Assembly: GCA_965262485.1 (NCBI GenBank)
Contig: OZ253540.1
Span: 1,044,711 to 1,108,710 of the forward strand
From: Dehalococcoidia bacterium
GTDB lineage: Bacteria > Chloroflexota > Dehalococcoidia > Lucifugimonadales > UBA3495
Reading direction: 5' to 3'
Length of the DNA stretch: 64,000 nt
Shown here: piece after piece, positions 1,613 to 63,867 of the stretch
Layout of the letters: every line of letters begins with the position of its first letter
Numbering within the stretch: position 1 is the first letter of the stretch
The notes under the pieces: generated by a model
Database searches by the model: none
What the model saw: only the letters and a program-made list of their open reading frames with translations
What the model was told of the DNA's origin: nothing
Position numbers and translations under genes: made by a program

Positions 1613-2410
1613 ATGACCACCGCAATCACACTACCGGCAGACCCTCCCGCCATTCGGGGAATGATCAGGTCGGGCAGTTACGATGGAGTAACCTCCGGTT
1701 TAGCCAACGGGTTCGTCCAGGCAAATTTAGCCGTGTTGCCGCGAGATCTGGCGTTCGATTTCCTCCTTTTTTGCCAGCGCAACCCGAGGCCGTGCCCTTT
1801 GCTTGAAGTGATTGACGCCGGTGAAGTGGAGCCATCGTTTACCGCCCCCGGCGCCGATATACGCACCGACGTTCCATCTTATCGGGTGTATGAGCACGGA
1901 GAGTTGGTTGCGGAGTTACCCTCCCTGGAGCAAATCTGGCGCAACGACCTGGTGTCGTTCCTGCTGGGATGCAGTTTTTCGTTTGAAGCGGCCATGTCTG
2001 ATGCCGGGATTCCGATCAGGCATCAGGAGGCCGGATCAAACGTGCCGATGTACATTACCAACATCGCAACGCAACCCGCCGGCGTGTTCTCCGGGCCAAT
2101 GGTTGTTAGTATGCGTCCGGTGGCGCAGGATAAGATAGTGAGGGCGGTTCAGGTTACCTCCCGTTTCCCGGACACCCACGGCGCTCCGGTTCACATCGGC
2201 GACCCGGAAGCCATCGGTATCCGGAACATAGAAGCGCCCGAATTTGGCGATGCCGTAGAGATCCGAGCCGGAGAAGTCCCGGTTTTTTGGGCCTGTGGAG
2301 TTACTCCGCAGGCGGTAGCCTTGAATTGCAAGCCACCCCTGATGATTACCCATTCCCCTGGCAAGATGTTTATCACCGACCGTCGTGACGCAGAATATGC
2401 GGTCATTTGA
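1613..2410 (+). CDS. UPF0317/DUF1445 putative hydro-lyase (D-glutamate-cyclase-like domain)
   Basis: Family-typical N-terminus (IRSGSYDGVTSGLANGFVQANLAVLPRDLAFDFLLFCQRNPRPCPLLEV). ATG at 1613 follows AGGAG; the listed ORF start at 1574 is TTG. Confidence 0.8.
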   Translation: MTTAITLPADPPAIRGMIRSGSYDGVTSGLANGFVQANLAVLPRDLAFDFLLFCQRNPRPCPLLEVIDAGEVEPSFTAPGADIRTDVPSYRVYEHGELVAELPSLEQIWRNDLVSFLLGCSFSFEAAMSDAGIPIRHQEAGSNVPMYITNIATQPAGVFSGPMVVSMRPVAQDKIVRAVQVTSRFPDTHGAPVHIGDPEAIGIRNIEAPEFGDAVEIRAGEVPVFWACGVTPQAVALNCKPPLMITHSPGKMFITDRRDAEYAVI

Positions 2411-2423
2411 TGCTGAGAGGATT

Positions 2424-3299
2424 ATGACCGACACAATTGAAGATATCGTATTGACTCACGACCGGCGGGGTATGGGGATTTTGCGGCCCCATCTGCCCGA
2501 CGATTATTGCCGGCGGGCGGCTCGGTACATCCTGGAGAATCCGGGGCCGGTGATAATCGTGACGGGGTTTTACATCCTCATGAGCGATGCGCCGGAAACG
2601 GACGGGCCTCCGGGAGCGATAGCAATCGGGGACGCCCTGCGCACGATGGGGGCCAGCGTTACCTACGTTGTGGATTCGCCGATGGCCGGTATGATGCAAT
2701 CCTGGTTGAAACAGCGTGGCGACCCGTCGGGGTTGGTAGAGTTCGCCATCACCGACGATCCTGATACCAATCGACAGCTGGCCTCGAATATCCTGGCGGA
2801 AGTTGAACCCGCGCTGTTGATAGCCATTGAGCGATGCTCCCCGGACGACGGCGGTGTGTACCGGAACATGCGAGGTCGCGATATTTCCCCGCAGACTGCC
2901 AGAATCGACGGCCTGTTTCAGTCGAACATACCGTCGGTTGGGATTGGAGACGGTGGAAACGAGATCGGTATGGCGAATTTAGCGCCCGTAATCAGGGATG
3001 CGGACCAGTTGCCCGATTATCCGGCCAATGTTGGTTGCGATCGACTCATCGTCGCCAGCACTTCCAACTGGGGCGGCTATGGGCTGGTGGCCGCGCTATC
3101 CAACCTGGTCGGGCGGAGCCTGTTGCCAGACGTGGACACCGACAGCGCGCTCATCCGGTACCTGGTTGACGCCGGAGCGGTCAGCGGAGTCAGCGGCGAG
3201 CACGACTACCTGGTGGACGAATTTACGCTTGAGGAGAACGCGGCGGTCCTGAATGCGTTGCATGACCATGTGGACAGGCAATTGGCCCAAGGCAGTTAG
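2424..3299 (+). CDS. DUF4392-domain protein (the other domain of eukaryotic D-glutamate cyclase)
   Basis: GFYILMSDAPETDGPPGAIAIGDAL and IGDGGNEIGM motifs as I remember for DUF4392. ATG at 2424 follows GAGAGG; earlier in-frame ATGs at 2385 and 2397 are possible. Confidence 0.7.
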   Translation: MTDTIEDIVLTHDRRGMGILRPHLPDDYCRRAARYILENPGPVIIVTGFYILMSDAPETDGPPGAIAIGDALRTMGASVTYVVDSPMAGMMQSWLKQRGDPSGLVEFAITDDPDTNRQLASNILAEVEPALLIAIERCSPDDGGVYRNMRGRDISPQTARIDGLFQSNIPSVGIGDGGNEIGMANLAPVIRDADQLPDYPANVGCDRLIVASTSNWGGYGLVAALSNLVGRSLLPDVDTDSALIRYLVDAGAVSGVSGEHDYLVDEFTLEENAAVLNALHDHVDRQLAQGS

Positions 3300-3533: not shown

Positions 3534-3714
3534 CTAGCGCCTGTTGACAATTAGCAAACCAACCCGTCACTCCTGCGAAGGCAGGAGTCCAGAGCGCGCA
3601 TGATGAAGGAATCAGAGCCGTGATTAACGACTTCGGCCATTGGATTCCCGCCCCGTATCAAGTACGGGGTGACGTTCTTTCGCGGGAACGACGGTATTTG
3701 TCAACACACCCTAG
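3534..3714. mobile_element. Class-1 MITE-like inverted-repeat element, copy A (CTAG...TGTTGACAA...TTGTCAACA...CTAG)
   Basis: Shares ends and interior with the copies at 62337-62537 and 63693-63867. It is bounded by CTAG on both sides and has no ORF. Confidence 0.8.
3652..3677 (-). repeat. 26-nt hairpin module GAACGTCACCCCGTACTTGATACGGG nested in the loop of the ATTCCCGC/GCGGGAA hairpin
   Basis: Identical 26-mer at 49873-49898, 61187-61212 and 62384-62409. The homologous hairpin at 63803-63822 lacks it. Confidence 0.85.
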
Positions 3715-43419: not shown

Positions 43420-43668
43420 CCAAGCACCTCTACCGGCCCACACATGACGCAGGGCGAATATGGCATTGATTGACAACACGCTGCAAATGCCTTTGCAGTC
43501 AAAGGGAATTTTACCATTATGCCGTGCCTTTGCCACGGAAAAACGCCAATCCGGAAAACAAGCCTGAACTCCATAACGCGGGCTGCGCAAGCCGGTTGAA
43601 ATCGAATATCTGAAGAGGCGTAGTGTATCCTTTTGGTTGTTCTCGCAAAATCCCGGACCGGATCACCC

Positions 43669-43847
43669 CAGGGCCTTTCGGTTTTACAAGAAATCCCCTC
43701 TCCCTTGATGGGAGAGGGTTAGAGCCTGCCCCGTACTTGATACGGGGGTGAGGGTGAAGGTGTGAGATAGGGAACTATCCTGCGGCAGACTATACCCCTC
43801 ACCCCAGCCCTCTCCCACAAGGGGAGAGGGAGAATCCAAAGGCCCTG
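43669..43847. mobile_element. Class-2 MITE-like element, copy F (CAGGGCCTTT...AAAGGCCCTG termini, 9-bp direct repeat GGATCACCC)
   Basis: 10-bp perfect terminal inverted repeat. Flanking direct repeats at 43660-43668 and 43848-43856. Interior consists of CCCTCTCCC/GGGAGAGGG hairpins. Confidence 0.75.
43729..43747 (+). repeat. Core hairpin CCCCGTACTTGATACGGGG (same core as the 26-nt module) inside element F
   Basis: 19-nt identity with the core of the module at 62384-62409. The flanking context differs (GAGCCTG instead of GAACGTCA). Confidence 0.7.
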
Positions 43848-43880
43848 GGATCACCCCGGTTTGGCCGACCGAATAGTGAT

Positions 43881-49713: not shown

Positions 49714-49736
49714 ATGCCTGGGGCACATTGGCGAAC

Positions 49737-49955
49737 CAGGGCAAACGCATTCTAACTTTAGGGGACCTCATATACCGTCATTCCCGCATATACCGTCATT
49801 CCCGCGAAAGCGGGAATCCATACAGCTTGCTTCCATACAGTTGACGTACAACCAAAGGACCTGGATTCCCGCCCCGTATCAAGTACGGGGTGACGTTCTT
49901 TCGCGGGAATGACGGACGCCAGCAAAGCCGATTAAATTAGAATGCGTTTGCCCTG
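49737..49955. mobile_element. Class-2 MITE-like element, copy B (19-bp perfect TIR CAGGGCAAACGCATTCTAA, 10-bp direct repeat ATTGGCGAAC)
   Basis: TIRs at 49737-49755 and 49937-49955. Direct repeats at 49727-49736 and 49956-49965. The interior carries ATTCCCGC hairpins and the 26-nt module. Confidence 0.85.
49873..49898 (-). repeat. 26-nt hairpin module nested in an ATTCCCGC/GCGGGAAT hairpin loop
   Basis: Identical 26-mer in the identical GAAA|...|GC context on the minus strand, as in the other copies. Confidence 0.85.
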
Positions 49956-50085
49956 ATTGGCGAACCGAGTAGATTTACGTTATCCCAAGGTTGGGGTATA
50001 TTGAGCGTGGCTCATTATGTGATTATCCGCCGTTTCGATCCACCGGCGACGGCGGGCCGACAGCGAGCTTCGACTGAAATCCACC

Positions 50086-52476: not shown

Positions 52477-53175
52477 TTACCTACCGTTGCTGGTTGCGTG
52501 TTCTGTAACACTGCCTGTTATCTGGGGATCCGGCTGTAAACCGATAGCGTCAAGCATAGCAGATTTCAAGCCCCTGGCCGATGCTTCCGGGTCGTCGCTG
52601 GCGAGAATGCTGGTGATTACCGCCGCTCCCCAAGCTCCGGCTCCCATTACATCGGCCACGTTGGTAGTGTCGATTCCGCCGATGGCAACCAGGGGCAGCG
52701 ATACGCCGGCATCGCGGATACGGGTCAACAATCCCGGGCCGGCCGGTTCTTCGCCGGGGTGGGAACGGGTAGCGAACATAGTGCCGACGAGCAGGAAATC
52801 TGCACTGGTGGCAGCCGCTTCCAGTGCCCCTTCGACCGAGTGGACGGAACGGCCAACAATGGCCTCCTCCCCCACGACCCGGCGGACCAGGTCGGCGGAC
52901 ATCGCCGCTTCACCCAGCTGAACGCCGTCGGCTCCACCGGCCACCGCCACGTCAGCGCGTTCATTGACCAACAGCAGCGCCCTGCCTTCGGTTACGTTCC
53001 GCAAGGTTGAAGTAAGCGAAAACACAGCCTGCCCCGGCAAATCTTTATCGCGCACCTGTACCACGTCAACGCCGCCGGAGATGGCTGCCGCAACGCGGGC
53101 CGGCATCTCATCCGCAGCGCAGACTGTGCGATCAGTCACGAGGCACAAGCAGGGATAGGGCAACGATGGCCGCAT
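52477..53175 (-). CDS. thiE: Thiamine-phosphate synthase
   Basis: LCLVTDR, VQVRDKD, GVQLG and IGGI motifs. Confidence 0.9.
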   Translation of the reverse strand: MRPSLPYPCLCLVTDRTVCAADEMPARVAAAISGGVDVVQVRDKDLPGQAVFSLTSTLRNVTEGRALLLVNERADVAVAGGADGVQLGEAAMSADLVRRVVGEEAIVGRSVHSVEGALEAAATSADFLLVGTMFATRSHPGEEPAGPGLLTRIRDAGVSLPLVAIGGIDTTNVADVMGAGAWGAAVITSILASDDPEASARGLKSAMLDAIGLQPDPQITGSVTEHATSNGR

Positions 53176-53188
53176 GGCGCGAAAGCGG

Positions 53189-53977
53189 CTAGTTTGCTAC
53201 CACGGGTTGGGGCACATCGGAAGTCGGACTGCTGGCGATGGCCTCGGTGCGCACCGGGATTCGGCCGGCCAGGTAAGCCTGCCGTCCGGCTTCGACTCCT
53301 TTGCGGAAGGCATCCGCCATCATAGACGGGTCCTGGGCCTGCGCGATGGCCGTATTGACCAAGACGGCGTCTGCACCCATCTCCAGAGCCTTGGCGGCGT
53401 CGGAAGGCACTGCCAAACCGGCATCCACGACGACGGGGATGGTAGCGTTTTCCAGGATGATCCTGATTTCTTCGCCGGTATGGATTCCCTGGCCGGACCC
53501 GATGGCAGAACCCAGAGGCATGACGGTGACGCACCCGACGTCTTCGAGATTCTTGGCGAGCACCGGGTCGGCGTGGATGTAAGGCATGACCTTGAACCCT
53601 TCGGCCACCAATTGCCGGGCGGCTTCCAAAGTGCCGTTGGGATCGGGGAAAAGGTACTTGGCGTCCGGTATGACTTCGAGCTTCACAAAATCGGTTTGGG
53701 TAACTTCCCGGCCCAACCGAGCCACAAAGAGCGCCTCTTCAACCGACCGACAACCGGCGGTGTTGGGCAGGATCTGGTATTTGTCCCAGTCGATGTAATC
53801 CAGGATGGTTTTCTCATCCGGATTGTCCAAGTCCAACCGACGGATGGCGACGGTAACCATCTGGGAACCGGAGGCTTCCAGGGAATCAACCATGTCCTGC
53901 ATGGTTCGGTGACGTCCAGTACCGACTATCAATCGGGAATGGAAAGATACTCCCCCAATTATCAGTTCATCGGTCAT
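53189..53977 (-). CDS. thiG: Thiazole synthase
   Basis: SRLIVGTG...VTVAIRR...LPNTAGC...[16 protein letters not shown] at 53977 follows AAGGAGAG. Confidence 0.95.
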
Positions 53978-54035
53978 CGGGCCACTCTCCTTTACCGAGC
54001 CACGCATTGATTTTGCAAGAGGCTCACGGCATCCC

Positions 54036-54065: not shown

Positions 54066-54084
54066 TTCATCAAAGCTCTACCAA

Positions 54085-54178
54085 CTGTTCCTGCGCCGGC
54101 ATTACCCGGATCCGGTACAGACGGTCGGCGACGAATTTGGCCGCCCTCTCAGCCTGGTTTACCCAAGCTCCCGCCAGA
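54085..54178 (-). promoter_or_regulatory. TPP (THI-box) riboswitch
   Basis: Minus strand reads ...GGGAGC...GCTGAGAGG...ACCGTCTGTACCGGATCCGGGTAATGCCGGCGCAGGAA, matching the conserved CUGAGA and ACCUGAUCUGGAUAAUGCCAGCG cores. Upstream of thiG. Confidence 0.9.
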
Positions 54179-54242
54179 ATTGCGTGAGGGTTCAATTGTT
54201 CTGAAAATGTAACACTACCAACGGGTTGAAGTCAATTCCAGA

Positions 54243-54400
54243 GGAAATTGCGAAACTCCAGTCCCTGCTTTCTGTCATTGCCAGGAGCTCCCGCTCATCC
54301 TGAGCCTGTCGAAGGACGTGGCAATCCCGTTGCAGCAACGGCGGCGGTTTCAGCGACGAGATTGCCGCGCTGCGCTCGCAATGACAAGTTTCGCAATTCC
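54243..54400. repeat. Compound palindromic intergenic element (about 160 bp)
   Basis: Nested inverted repeats: ATTGCGAAACT/AGTTTCGCAAT, TGTCATTGC/GCAATGACA, GGCAATC/GATTGCC, and a central CCGTTGC-A-GCAACGG. No ORF. Confidence 0.6.
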
Positions 54401-54529
54401 AGAACGTGCGACCAGGTCGTGCAGCAATTGATTGGTCGAATCGGCGGCTACTCGAACGCAAAACGCATTCTCAACAGGGACTCGACACGTTCGGGGGCTC
54501 TCCAATTCTCGGCAAATGTGAGCCGGCGG

Positions 54530-55201
54530 TCAAACCTCGTACTCCGACACGGTTTCCGGGATAATGAGCGCAGCTCCGGTGACAGACTGGACATCGGACG
54601 GCGTCCACCCGGGAGCGGTTTCACGCAGCACCATTCCATCGGGAGTGGGTTCCAATACGGCGACGTCGGTTACTATCAACGAGACGCACGCTTTTCCAGT
54701 CAGGGGATAGTCGCAATCCTGAACAACCTTGGGGTTGCCTTGGCGGTCATTGTGTTCCATGGCCACTATGACCTTGCCGGCGCCGGCAGCCAAATCCATG
54801 GCTCCCCCGATGTTGCCGACTCCACGCTCGGGAAGGATCCAGTTAGCCAGGTCGCCGGTAGCGGAAACTTGGTGAGCCCCCAATACCGTTACGTCCACGT
54901 GCCCGCCCCGGATCATGGCGAATGCGTCAACCGAGGAGAAGAATGCCATTCCCGGCACACATTCCAGGAACTGGCCTCCAGCGTTGATGAGGTCGATGTT
55001 TTCGTTGCCGTCTTCCGCCAACGGTCCACAGTTCAGTACGCCGCTCTCGCTGTGGTAACACACGACGCTGTCGTCTGCCACGAACATTGAGACCAACGTG
55101 GGGATGCCGATGCCCAGGTTAACATACGCGCCCGGAGGCAATTCTCTGGCCACCCGCATTGCGATGATGGCGCGGTCCAGTCGTTCTTTTTCTACAGTCA
55201 T
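54530..55201 (-). CDS. 3-oxoacid CoA-transferase subunit B (canonical)
   Basis: RVARELPPGAYVNLGIGIPTLV...HSESGVLNCGP, keeping the catalytic Glu of the SENG-type motif. Confidence 0.9.
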   Translation of the reverse strand: MTVEKERLDRAIIAMRVARELPPGAYVNLGIGIPTLVSMFVADDSVVCYHSESGVLNCGPLAEDGNENIDLINAGGQFLECVPGMAFFSSVDAFAMIRGGHVDVTVLGAHQVSATGDLANWILPERGVGNIGGAMDLAAGAGKVIVAMEHNDRQGNPKVVQDCDYPLTGKACVSLIVTDVAVLEPTPDGMVLRETAPGWTPSDVQSVTGAALIIPETVSEYEV

Positions 55202-61057: not shown

Positions 61058-61249
61058 CTAGGCCATGCTGACATTTGAGATATAAGGCGATTTCGCTAAC
61101 CCCAGTTCGTCATTCCCGCGAAAGCGGGAATCCAGAGTACTCTAAATGTGAACGATGTCTGCTTTCCAAAGCGCCTGGATTCCGGCCCCGTATCAAGTAC
61201 GGGGTGACGTTCTTTCGCCGGAATGACGTGAAATGTCAACAGAACCTAA
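61058..61249. mobile_element. Class-1-related MITE-like element, divergent copy C (CTAG...TGACATTT...AAATGTCA...CTAA)
   Basis: Ends are related to copies A, D and E at the same 7-nt offset from the flanking YTAR. Interior has hairpin, spacer, then a hairpin carrying the 26-nt module. Confidence 0.6.
61187..61212 (-). repeat. 26-nt hairpin module nested in an ATTCCGGC/GCCGGAAT hairpin loop
   Basis: Identical 26-mer. The host stem carries a compensated C:G to G:C swap relative to the other copies. Confidence 0.85.
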
Positions 61250-61320
61250 ACTGCCATACTGGCTGAGTTACTATCCTGATTTGACCGAACCACAAGGAAA
61301 CCAAACCGGCAGGGAGCGAC

Positions 61321-62336: not shown

Positions 62337-62537
62337 CTAGAGCCTGTTGACAATTAGCAAACCAGTCCGTCACTCCTGCGAAAGAACGTCACCCCGTACT
62401 TGATACGGGGCAGGAGTCCAGAGAGGGTATGACGAAAGAGTCAGAACCGTGGTTAACGACTGCGGCCACTGGACTCCCGCTTTCGCGGGAATGACGGTGG
62501 TTAAGCGGGAATGACGGTATTTGTCAACACATCCTAG
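62337..62537. mobile_element. Class-1 MITE-like element, copy D
   Basis: About 95 % identical by eye to copy E, apart from a 26-nt insertion at 62384-62409. CTAG at both ends. Confidence 0.85.
62384..62409 (+). repeat. 26-nt hairpin module nested in the CTCCTGC/GCAGGAG hairpin loop
   Basis: The same 26-mer in a different host hairpin. The homologous hairpin in copy E (63725-63753) has the loop empty. Confidence 0.9.
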
Positions 62538-63692: not shown

Positions 63693-63867
63693 CTAGAGCC
63701 TGTTGACAATTAGCAAACCAACCCGTCACTCCTGCGAAAGCAGGAGTCCAGAGAGGGTATGATGAAAGAATCAGAACCGTGATTAACGACTGCGGCCACT
63801 GGATTCCCGCTTTCGCGGGAATGACGGTGGTTAAGCGGGAATGACGGTATTTGTCAACACACACTAG
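63693..63867. mobile_element. Class-1 MITE-like element, copy E (both hairpin loops unoccupied)
   Basis: CTAG-AGCC-TGTTGACAA...TTGTCAACA-CACA-CTAG. Serves as the reference copy for the family. Confidence 0.85.

Follow-up and report, generated by a model that had tools for sequence, protein, structure and literature searches.

How a hairpin of only 26 nucleotides (nt) comes to sit at one exact position in the loops of several different stem-loops is the question raised by a 64-kb stretch of Dehalococcoidia DNA (contig OZ253540.1, positions 1,044,711 to 1,108,710; "the window" below means this whole stretch). The 26-mer GAACGTCACCCCGTACTTGATACGGG, here called the module, occurs in the window in four copies which are identical at 26 of 26 positions, and none is expected in shuffled sequences. 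A preliminary description of the window, made from the sequence alone, had reported these copies, had located each of them in a stem-loop, after GAAA and before the closing G, with stems that differ among the sites, and had suggested hairpin-guided single-strand transposition of the IS200/IS605 or REP/RAYT kind. The explanation we favor, with a probability of about 0.45, is that the module is a tiny non-autonomous tagged hairpin which would be copied on single-stranded DNA (ssDNA) into the 3' edges of loops, with its 5' end set by an Ssn-type nuclease and with passive spread inside miniature inverted-repeat transposable elements (MITEs).

The module and its host hairpins

Exact matching confirmed the four copies at 3652..3677, 49873..49898 and 61187..61212 on the minus strand and at 62384..62409 on the plus strand, and these lie in composite elements designated E1, E2, E3 and E4, respectively. 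The module consists of a 3-nt leader (GAA), the tag CGTCA and a 7-bp hairpin (CCCCGTA-CTTGA-TACGGG(G)), with its left edge 2-3 nt upstream of its own tag. Each of the four sites reads ...GCGAAA, the 26-mer and GC... within a stem-loop, and the full order is CGTCA (CGTCG in E1), a 7-nt arm, GAAA, the module, the complementary arm starting from GC, and TCCAG (TCCAA in E1). The filled host hairpins span 3641..3693 (-) in E1, 49861..49914 (-) in E2, 61175..61228 (-) in E3 and 62368..62421 (+) in E4, and their stems are TTCCCGC in E1 and E2, TTCCGGC in E3 and CTCCTGC in E4; both arms covary by compensatory pairs, and the reported placement between GAAA and the closing G of differing stems was borne out. 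The boundary of the insert has a 1-base ambiguity, i.e., it can be read as GAAA/G...GGG/G or as GAAAG/A...GGGG/C. Folded as DNA, the filled hairpin of the E4 host is Y-shaped, with the 3' arm of the outer hairpin serving as the stacking partner of the inner one. The base 3' of the inner palindrome is always C, and in nested copies this C is provided by the host arm because the insert precedes the closing G.

At all four sites a spacer of 40-50 nt comes after the filled hairpin, and beyond it lies an inverted, unfilled hairpin of the same kind. The empty partner in E1 lies at 3565..3591 (+), with stem CTCCTGC and loop GAAG, the partner in E2 at 49794..49821 (+) fits both the published NTS consensus and the Ssn-related motif (SRM) pattern described below, and the partners in E3 and E4, at 61108..61135 (+) and 62469..62496 (-), fit the SRM pattern. 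In a fifth composite, E5, both hairpins are empty, the left one at 63724..63751 (+) being the unfilled counterpart of the E4 host and the right one at 63799..63826 (-) that of the E1 host. The alignment of E5 with E4 (95-96% identity) and that of the reverse complement of E5 with E1 (92% identity) each contained a gap of exactly 26 columns with 0 duplicated bases, in agreement with the earlier statement that removal of the 26 nt restores the sister hairpin. Within this one MITE family the module is thus absent from E5, in the left hairpin of E4, and in the right hairpin of E1 on the other strand. E2 and E3 have about 12 further bases in common (CCAGGnnCTTTGG) beyond the hairpin and possibly derive from one filled ancestor, so that at least three of the four window copies would require separate insertion events. 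The further statement that the module had not diverged while its hosts had could not be upheld, as the orthologous E4 module in a 95-96% identical relative (L119) carries one substitution and the module therefore does mutate. Taken together, the alignments show a unit with fixed ends, inserted seamlessly, that has entered different stems and, within one MITE family, the hairpins at either end.

The 5' half-site of the host hairpin, made up of the tag and the 5' arm, was also observed as tandem arrays of as many as four copies, at 49776-49790, 62497-62515 and 63827-63845 of the window and in three loci outside it (L124, L162 and L164). These half-sites look like the products of re-copying from a fixed start near the tag.

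The host family and its link to Ssn-type nucleases

The host, which the preliminary description had treated as an anonymous structure, is by its sequence, base for base, a hairpin of the Neisseria NTS/SRM family, to which the CGTC-1 REP and dRS3 belong. Chenal et al. (2025; PMC11893778) defined the 28-nt NTS (CGTCATTCCCGCGMAVGCGGGAATCYRG) and a degenerate SRM pattern, and reported that NTS flank genes for SsnA, a 94-amino-acid (aa) single-domain GIY-YIG protein that binds NTS solely as ssDNA and in one orientation, for which the C after the palindrome is the top position for binding, and that cuts a few nt upstream, a position which, from their text on NTS37 and NTS28, would precede the NTS by 3 nt. 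Di Nocera et al. (2013; PMC3733652) divided REPs into GTAG-tagged and CGTC-tagged super-families, with the Neisseria dRS3 included in CGTC-1, and reported the CGTC-tagged REPs to be mainly head-to-head dimers and to be apparently without a dedicated tyrosine transposase; the same survey noted REPs inserted within small palindromes of Thermomicrobium roseum (GTAG-23) and REPs inside genes. Four empty hairpins of the window (stem TTCCCGC) match the NTS consensus together with the SRM pattern, with 0.65 expected in shuffles. The host shares with CGTC-1/dRS3 the CGTC/TGTC tag, a loop of 4-5 nt, a CCA-type tail, the head-to-head dimers and the lack of a known tyrosine transposase.

The module itself (CGTCACCCCGTACTTGATACGGGG) fits the first three blocks of the SRM pattern (tag HGTCW, palindrome, loop, palindrome), it shares the layout of tag, palindrome and C with the NTS, and its left edge agrees with the reported offset of the SsnA cut. 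In nested copies the host 3' arm stands where the SRM tail would be. From its sequence the module resembles a reduced form of the repeats of the NTS/SRM superfamily, although it differs from the NTS in its stem and loop and from CGTC REP families 1-4 in having a 7-bp stem that starts with CCCC (CCCCGTA) rather than one of 8-9 bp with A, T first, in the absence of their CCA tail from nested copies, and in being mainly a passenger in other repeats. The 2025 paper presents the host family as free-standing repeats together with a nuclease, and nesting of one hairpin in the loop of another is not part of its description.

A more direct link to a nuclease gene was observed in a Sericytochromatia contig (L114), in which the 560 nt upstream of a 98-aa GIY-YIG gene (Pfam E = 1.4e-13) contain TGTCG-CCCCGTACTTGATACGGGG three times, CCCCGTACTTGATACGGGG being the 19-nt core of the module. 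The protein of this gene was used to fetch 80 metagenome loci, which were chosen independently of the module. SRM-pattern matches were found in 49 of the 80 loci of these GIY-YIG homologues, and most of them are TGTCATTCCCGCGAAAGCGGGAATCCAG, which is the host hairpin of the window; the published association of the repeat with Ssn-type genes was thereby reproduced. The NTS-type hairpins in the 80 loci have a 4-nt loop in 175 of 226 cases, further ones show tandem 5' half-site arrays, and in about 10 the loop is occupied by another TGTC-tagged hairpin, which again lies directly against the 3' arm and in many cases has AGC(C/T)TGTC as its leader. On this evidence nesting is general in the repeat superfamily and not peculiar to the 26-mer. 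In addition, a GIY-YIG gene in another locus (L103, 1440-1860) lies between inverted copies of GTCCTTCGACAAGCTCAGGACGAACGG, another widespread repeat, which also serves as host for a module with leader AGCCTG in L075, L096 and L111.

Distribution, other hosts and the carrying composites

An exact scan for the 19-mer with one genome per species found the identical core at more than 117 loci, a lower bound, in many phyla. Dehalococcoidia dominate among the matches listed, and the other carriers include Syntrophaceae and other Desulfobacterota, several species of cultured Pseudoxanthomonas, Methylococcales, Nitrosomonadales, Nitrospira, Patescibacteria and Binatia, among others. Three leader classes were distinguished. 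The leader AGCCTG, which gives an insert of 24 nt, is the commonest and occurs across phyla, and its variants with other stems or loops keep the base pairing. The leader GAACGTCA, with the 26-nt insert of the window type, was seen in Dehalococcoidia only, among the matches listed. The leader GGAGTTTA was found in Syntrophaceae and other Desulfobacterota, in Nitrospiria and in one Chloroflexi metagenome-assembled genome (MAG), and here the module sits in the same hairpin family, but reversed relative to the host tag. The window-type module occupies the same position, between GAAA and G in a hairpin loop, in at least six different stems from at least seven genomes, with TTCCGGC, CTCCGGC, CTCCTGC, TTCCAGC and TACCGGC among the stems that host the same 26-mer in other Dehalococcoidia, and four further copies, with a TAACGTCA leader, are located elsewhere than in such loops, those of L002 and L038 in an IS630 transposase gene and the other two in L033 and L065. 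When a perfect 6-nt host arm was used as the criterion, 37 of 130 copies (28%) were found to abut a host 3' arm on the module strand, in comparison to 3 of 130 for the mirror arrangement and 2% at random positions; the contexts are thus not arbitrary. The module is not part of one longer conserved unit either, so that neither of the two outcomes which the preliminary description had named as refuting it was obtained. In some hosts (L106, L109 and L068) it directly follows CTTGAT. A partial tandem duplication of the module, with TACTTGATACGGGG present twice, was noted near position 470 of a Pseudoxanthomonas yeongjuensis locus (L085).

The exact 26-mer had 0 matches in the JGI metagenome collection. 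One match to the 19-mer core was found in viral contigs, a 42-nt module-bearing query had no genuine counterpart among plasmids or in E. coli genomes, and these viral contig, plasmid and E. coli searches identified no vector of horizontal spread. The module sequence was not found printed in any publication in a literature search for the sequences.

The fifth copy of the core in the window, which had been reported to lie in a different context, was found at 43729-43747 (+) as described, and its setting can now be specified: it carries the leader AGCCTG (43723..43747, +) and sits in loop 2, after TTA, of a Box C or intrastrand-triplex motif rather than in a GAAA loop. The motif is one of an inverted pair at 43695-43830, of which the left member is filled, the leader AGCCTG and its hairpin coming after TTA and before the third strand, and the right member is empty. 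The Box C/TM-ECO motif is an abundant repeat whose conservation extends to more than 260 genomes and for which no gene is known to act in mobilisation (Holder et al. 2015; PMC4666352), and it resembles the module in its spread across phyla, its intergenic position, the lack of such a gene and its local instability, but it is a separate repeat, for which insertions into the second loop were not reported in that paper. The pair is enclosed by an outer palindrome (CCCAGGGCCTTT...AAAGGCCCTGGG) at 43667-43849, and a relative (L200) has at the Box C site an NTS doublet within a different palindrome.

Transposase genes form a further group of hosts. An IS630-family transposase gene in L027 holds inserts of AGCCTG plus the hairpin, and its alignment with an IS630 paralogue (L078) shows four clean gaps of 24, 25, 23 and 22-23 nt, each of which corresponds to AGCCTG plus the hairpin minus the last G, placed 5' of a G and usually with CAG as the left flank. 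As read from the alignment, insertion in these pairs is seamless, into sequence without any similarity to the hairpin repeats. One 24-nt insert is in frame (SWLN-PVSSTGQA-MAEIE) and at least one breaks the frame. Four further inserts lie at 500-850 of L027, a region taken to be part of a transposase gene of the IS5 type, and IS5-type genes at other loci also carry the core. The L027 inserts, nine of AGCCTG plus hairpin, all fall within 2 kb (300-2300) across the adjacent IS5-type fragment and IS630-type gene, with none in the remaining 5.7 kb. IS genes seem to collect these inserts, and annotation pipelines should expect hairpin inserts in transposase genes and beside stop codons. The loop targeting which the preliminary description had proposed therefore holds for many NTS loops and has to be widened, given the copies in Box C loop 2, those in IS630 and IS5 genes, and the one leader class that is reversed to the NTS tag. 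In general, the matches show the core to be shared, at the sequence level, by several phyla and several unrelated hosts.

The composites which carry the hairpins are mobile as well. E1 (3534..3714), E4 (62337..62537) and E5 (63693..63867) form one MITE family, 92-96% identical, with TGTTGACAA inverted ends and bounded by CTAG; the module is in the right-hand NTS of E1 and in the left-hand NTS of E4, which is present and filled in L119, and both NTS of E5, which is absent from L119, are empty. The E5 site has CTAG on both sides in the window and a single CTAG in L119, a pattern that is, on this comparison, that of a miniature transposon targeting TA/CTAG. Such a pattern is typical of IS630/Tc1-like elements. 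By sequence reading, E1 sits precisely at the stop codon TAG of uvrB, and E4 at that of a 121-aa open reading frame (ORF). E2 (49727..49966) is a different MITE with 18-nt inverted ends AGGGCAAACGCATTCTAA and an 11-bp direct repeat ATTGGCGAACC, it carries an NTS doublet, and its site is empty in two relatives (L201 and L202); the region of E3 (about 61060..61255) also contains an NTS doublet, in place of which L119 has 25 unrelated bases. E5, with its pair of CTAG and the empty site in L119, and E2, with its direct repeat and the empty sites in L201 and L202, thus have the properties of DDE-type MITEs. A 97% identical relative (L200) has wholly different repeats at both the E2 site and the 43.7-kb site, and these intergenic spots are, as far as the compared sequences tell, hot spots of turnover; the repeat block of L200 at the E2 spot is 343 nt long. 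In the relatives reached, the composites at E1, E2 and 43.7 kb have been swapped whole without gain or loss of a single module, and no gain or loss of the module at an orthologous hairpin was seen among the relatives compared. Filled hairpins are in this way shown to multiply passively, inside MITE-like composites that are present or absent between strains.

The module was also considered as an IS630-type MITE or a solo inverted repeat, as the leader TAGAGCCTG also starts the E4/E5 MITE and a few copies are fully palindromic. This candidate was rejected: no TA or other duplication flanks the module, and DDE-type MITEs combine terminal inverted repeats with a target-site duplication, which was present at 0 of the filled/empty pairs. 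The sequence TAGAGCCTG occurs three times in the window (43720, 62338 and 63694; 0.2 expected), each time marking the left boundary of a repeat: at 43720 it precedes the hairpin, and at the other two positions it opens the E4 or E5 MITE, so that the leader is shared.

A search of the whole window at Rfam gathering thresholds returned a TPP riboswitch only (RF00059, 56 bits; 54071-54184, minus strand, between the ORFs 53174-54010 and 54248-55090) and no family that fits the module, and an Rfam E-value search of 61-64 kb gave nothing relevant.

Mechanism and alternative explanations

The explanation to which we gave a probability of about 0.45 can be stated in steps. The 26-mer would be copied, in one discrete piece, to sites at which other DNA is single-stranded, mainly at the 3' edge of the loop of an NTS/SRM hairpin, with the module hairpin stacking directly on the host 3' arm. 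Insertion would take place on ssDNA during hairpin extrusion; an Ssn-type GIY-YIG nuclease would set the 5' end by binding the tagged hairpin and cutting about 3 nt upstream of the tag, and joining may be done by host replication or repair or by another partner. The filled hairpins would then spread passively within MITE-like composites. As no mobilising gene was found, we infer the mechanism, i.e., the enzyme and the single-strand step, from the geometry of the sites, the position of the left edge, the C after the inner palindrome, the gene in L114 and the nested NTS of the independently chosen loci.

Several observations weigh against this explanation. The module, in nested and solo copies alike, fails the full SRM pattern, whose 3' tail is RNCYNB, and its stem is unlike those of the described CGTC families. 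In AGCCTG, the commonest leader, a CGTC tag cannot be clearly recognised, and 4-5 nt separate the left edge from a putative TGCC tag. No GIY-YIG gene was found within the 64-kb window; a near-match of the module hairpin occurs in only 1 of the 80 GIY-YIG homologue loci (L140), so that the direct link from this hairpin to a GIY-YIG gene, and with it the tie to a particular Ssn clade, would be made at one locus, L114. The Ssn enzymes are known as nucleases only and not as joining enzymes, and the cut offset is taken from the text of the paper rather than from oligonucleotide sequences (PMC11893778). Finally, the filled state of E4 in L119 means that this insertion is older than the strain split of about 5%, and no ongoing movement was observed.

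The enzyme proposed in the preliminary description, a Y1/HUH single-strand transposase (RAYT, IS200/IS605 TnpA or IS91-like) which would excise the hairpin and paste it 3' of a short target by peel-and-paste, now appears unlikely, even though the rest of that proposal, a hairpin-centred unit which enters loops at one position, in one orientation and without target duplication, has stood and is what such an enzyme would be expected to leave. The loop of the module, CTTGAT, includes the IS91 target CTTG and the ISDra2 target TTGAT, the copies directly after CTTGAT point the same way, and the module was observed to avoid, weakly, whichever strand is locally richer in G (18 of 57; p = 0.0075, without correction and dependent on the threshold). 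The small hairpin repeats with a short conserved 5' tag, the action on ssDNA, the seamless insertion and the inverted doublets are likewise shared with REP/REPIN-RAYT and IS200/IS605 systems. The module differs from them, however, in lacking the GTAG tag and an associated RAYT or TnpA, in consisting of a single 26-nt hairpin where IS200/IS605 elements have two different end hairpins, and in its loose left target, which is NAG or AAA only; moreover, REPIN populations are lineage-specific and the module is identical across phyla. The gene search pointed away from this enzyme as well. All ORFs of 118 module loci (0.94 Mb) were probed with one IS200 TnpA and one E. coli RayT sequence; the TnpA probe gave 0 matches, and the RayT probe found one RAYT (L047, 2346-2936, minus strand; Pfam Y1_Tnp match below threshold), flanked by a different, GTAG-type REP (GTAGGGGCGGTTCGCGAACCGCCCCTAC), so that no Y1 gene was tied to the module. 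ORF clustering of the 118 loci returned only housekeeping families and DDE IS transposases, which are themselves targets, and the CGTC-tagged repeats have been reported without a dedicated tyrosine transposase (PMC3733652). The RAYT region itself, at 1900-3000 of a Dehalococcoidia MAG, has a classical arrangement with GTAGGGGCGGTTCGCGAACCGCCCCTAC REPs on both sides of the gene and one copy within it.

Stalled replication forks could also have produced the sites without a dedicated enzyme, by template switching or by short-patch gene conversion from one hairpin repeat to another, as might be suggested by the 1-2-base microhomology at the junctions (AG/AG..., ...GGG/G), by the half-site tandem arrays and slippage-like variants (including those at 49776-49790 and 62497-62515 of the window) and by the partial tandem duplication in L085. 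This would not be expected to give the same ends in many phyla and in hosts as non-homologous as NTS loops, Box C loop 2 and IS630/IS5 coding sequence; host stems differ right up to the edge of the insert, conversion tracts should vary in length, and we regard it as quite unlikely. A role for the cell, with spread being secondary, is in our judgment improbable. The module might turn an NTS into a terminator or an RNA-stabilising hairpin on the opposite strand, on which a GC hairpin is followed by GACGTTCTTTC at 3651-3690 (+), 49872-49911 (+), 61185-61225 (+) and 62412-62372 (-); a terminator scan caught two of the copies, and, going by the ORF orientations, each of the four is preceded by a neighbouring gene whose reading direction leads into that strand. 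The T-run is weak, though, terminator-like sites are not above shuffles (4 in comparison to 3.3 expected), the core occurs without such a tail in transposase coding sequence and Box C loops, and no Rfam family matched. Least probable of all, and in our view highly so, is that the long-loop hairpin is ancestral and the GAAA form arose from it by repeated precise deletion, or that the four copies come from one filled unit. The uniform order of filled hairpin, spacer and inverted empty hairpin at all four sites, and the extra bases common to E2 and E3, which may reflect one event, would fit such an origin. Against it stand the 4-nt loop in 175 of 226 independently chosen hairpins, which is also the form characterised with SsnA, the position of the E4 and E1 modules at opposite ends of a MITE family in which the empty E5 was inserted recently, and the lack of flanking direct repeats to drive precise deletion; the window data point toward filled copies that are polyphyletic among the empty ones.

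Outside the REP systems, the module resembles the Rickettsia palindromic elements, which are also short palindromic selfish elements found in coding sequence, sometimes in frame, as is the 24-nt insert in the IS630 gene; those elements are 100-150 bp long, and some of the inserts described here break the reading frame. The GC clusters of yeast mitochondria are short palindromic selfish elements as well, and they too can sit in coding sequence, sometimes in frame.

For CGTC-tagged repeats such as NTS and dRS3, the 2013 survey reported no dedicated transposase, and the 2025 Ssn paper left the role of these nucleases outside Neisseria unexplained. A unit of 24-26 nt with clean filled and empty sites, fixed ends, a fixed geometry and a left end at the Ssn offset turns the multiplication of these repeats into a question that can be tested with oligonucleotides. 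A broader and more doubtful proposal would be that Ssn-type GIY-YIG nucleases are more than restriction-like and set the limits of the mobile unit in a superfamily of tagged hairpins that is pan-bacterial, with the nested copies recording the register of a cut about 3 nt 5' of the tag and of joining at the 3' loop edge of a second hairpin. If true, it would give a first clue to the mechanism by which CGTC REP/NTS repeats, and perhaps Box C, proliferate and cross phyla. The sites also show NTS, Box C and this hairpin, as repeats common to several phyla, to make up a nested, modular system.

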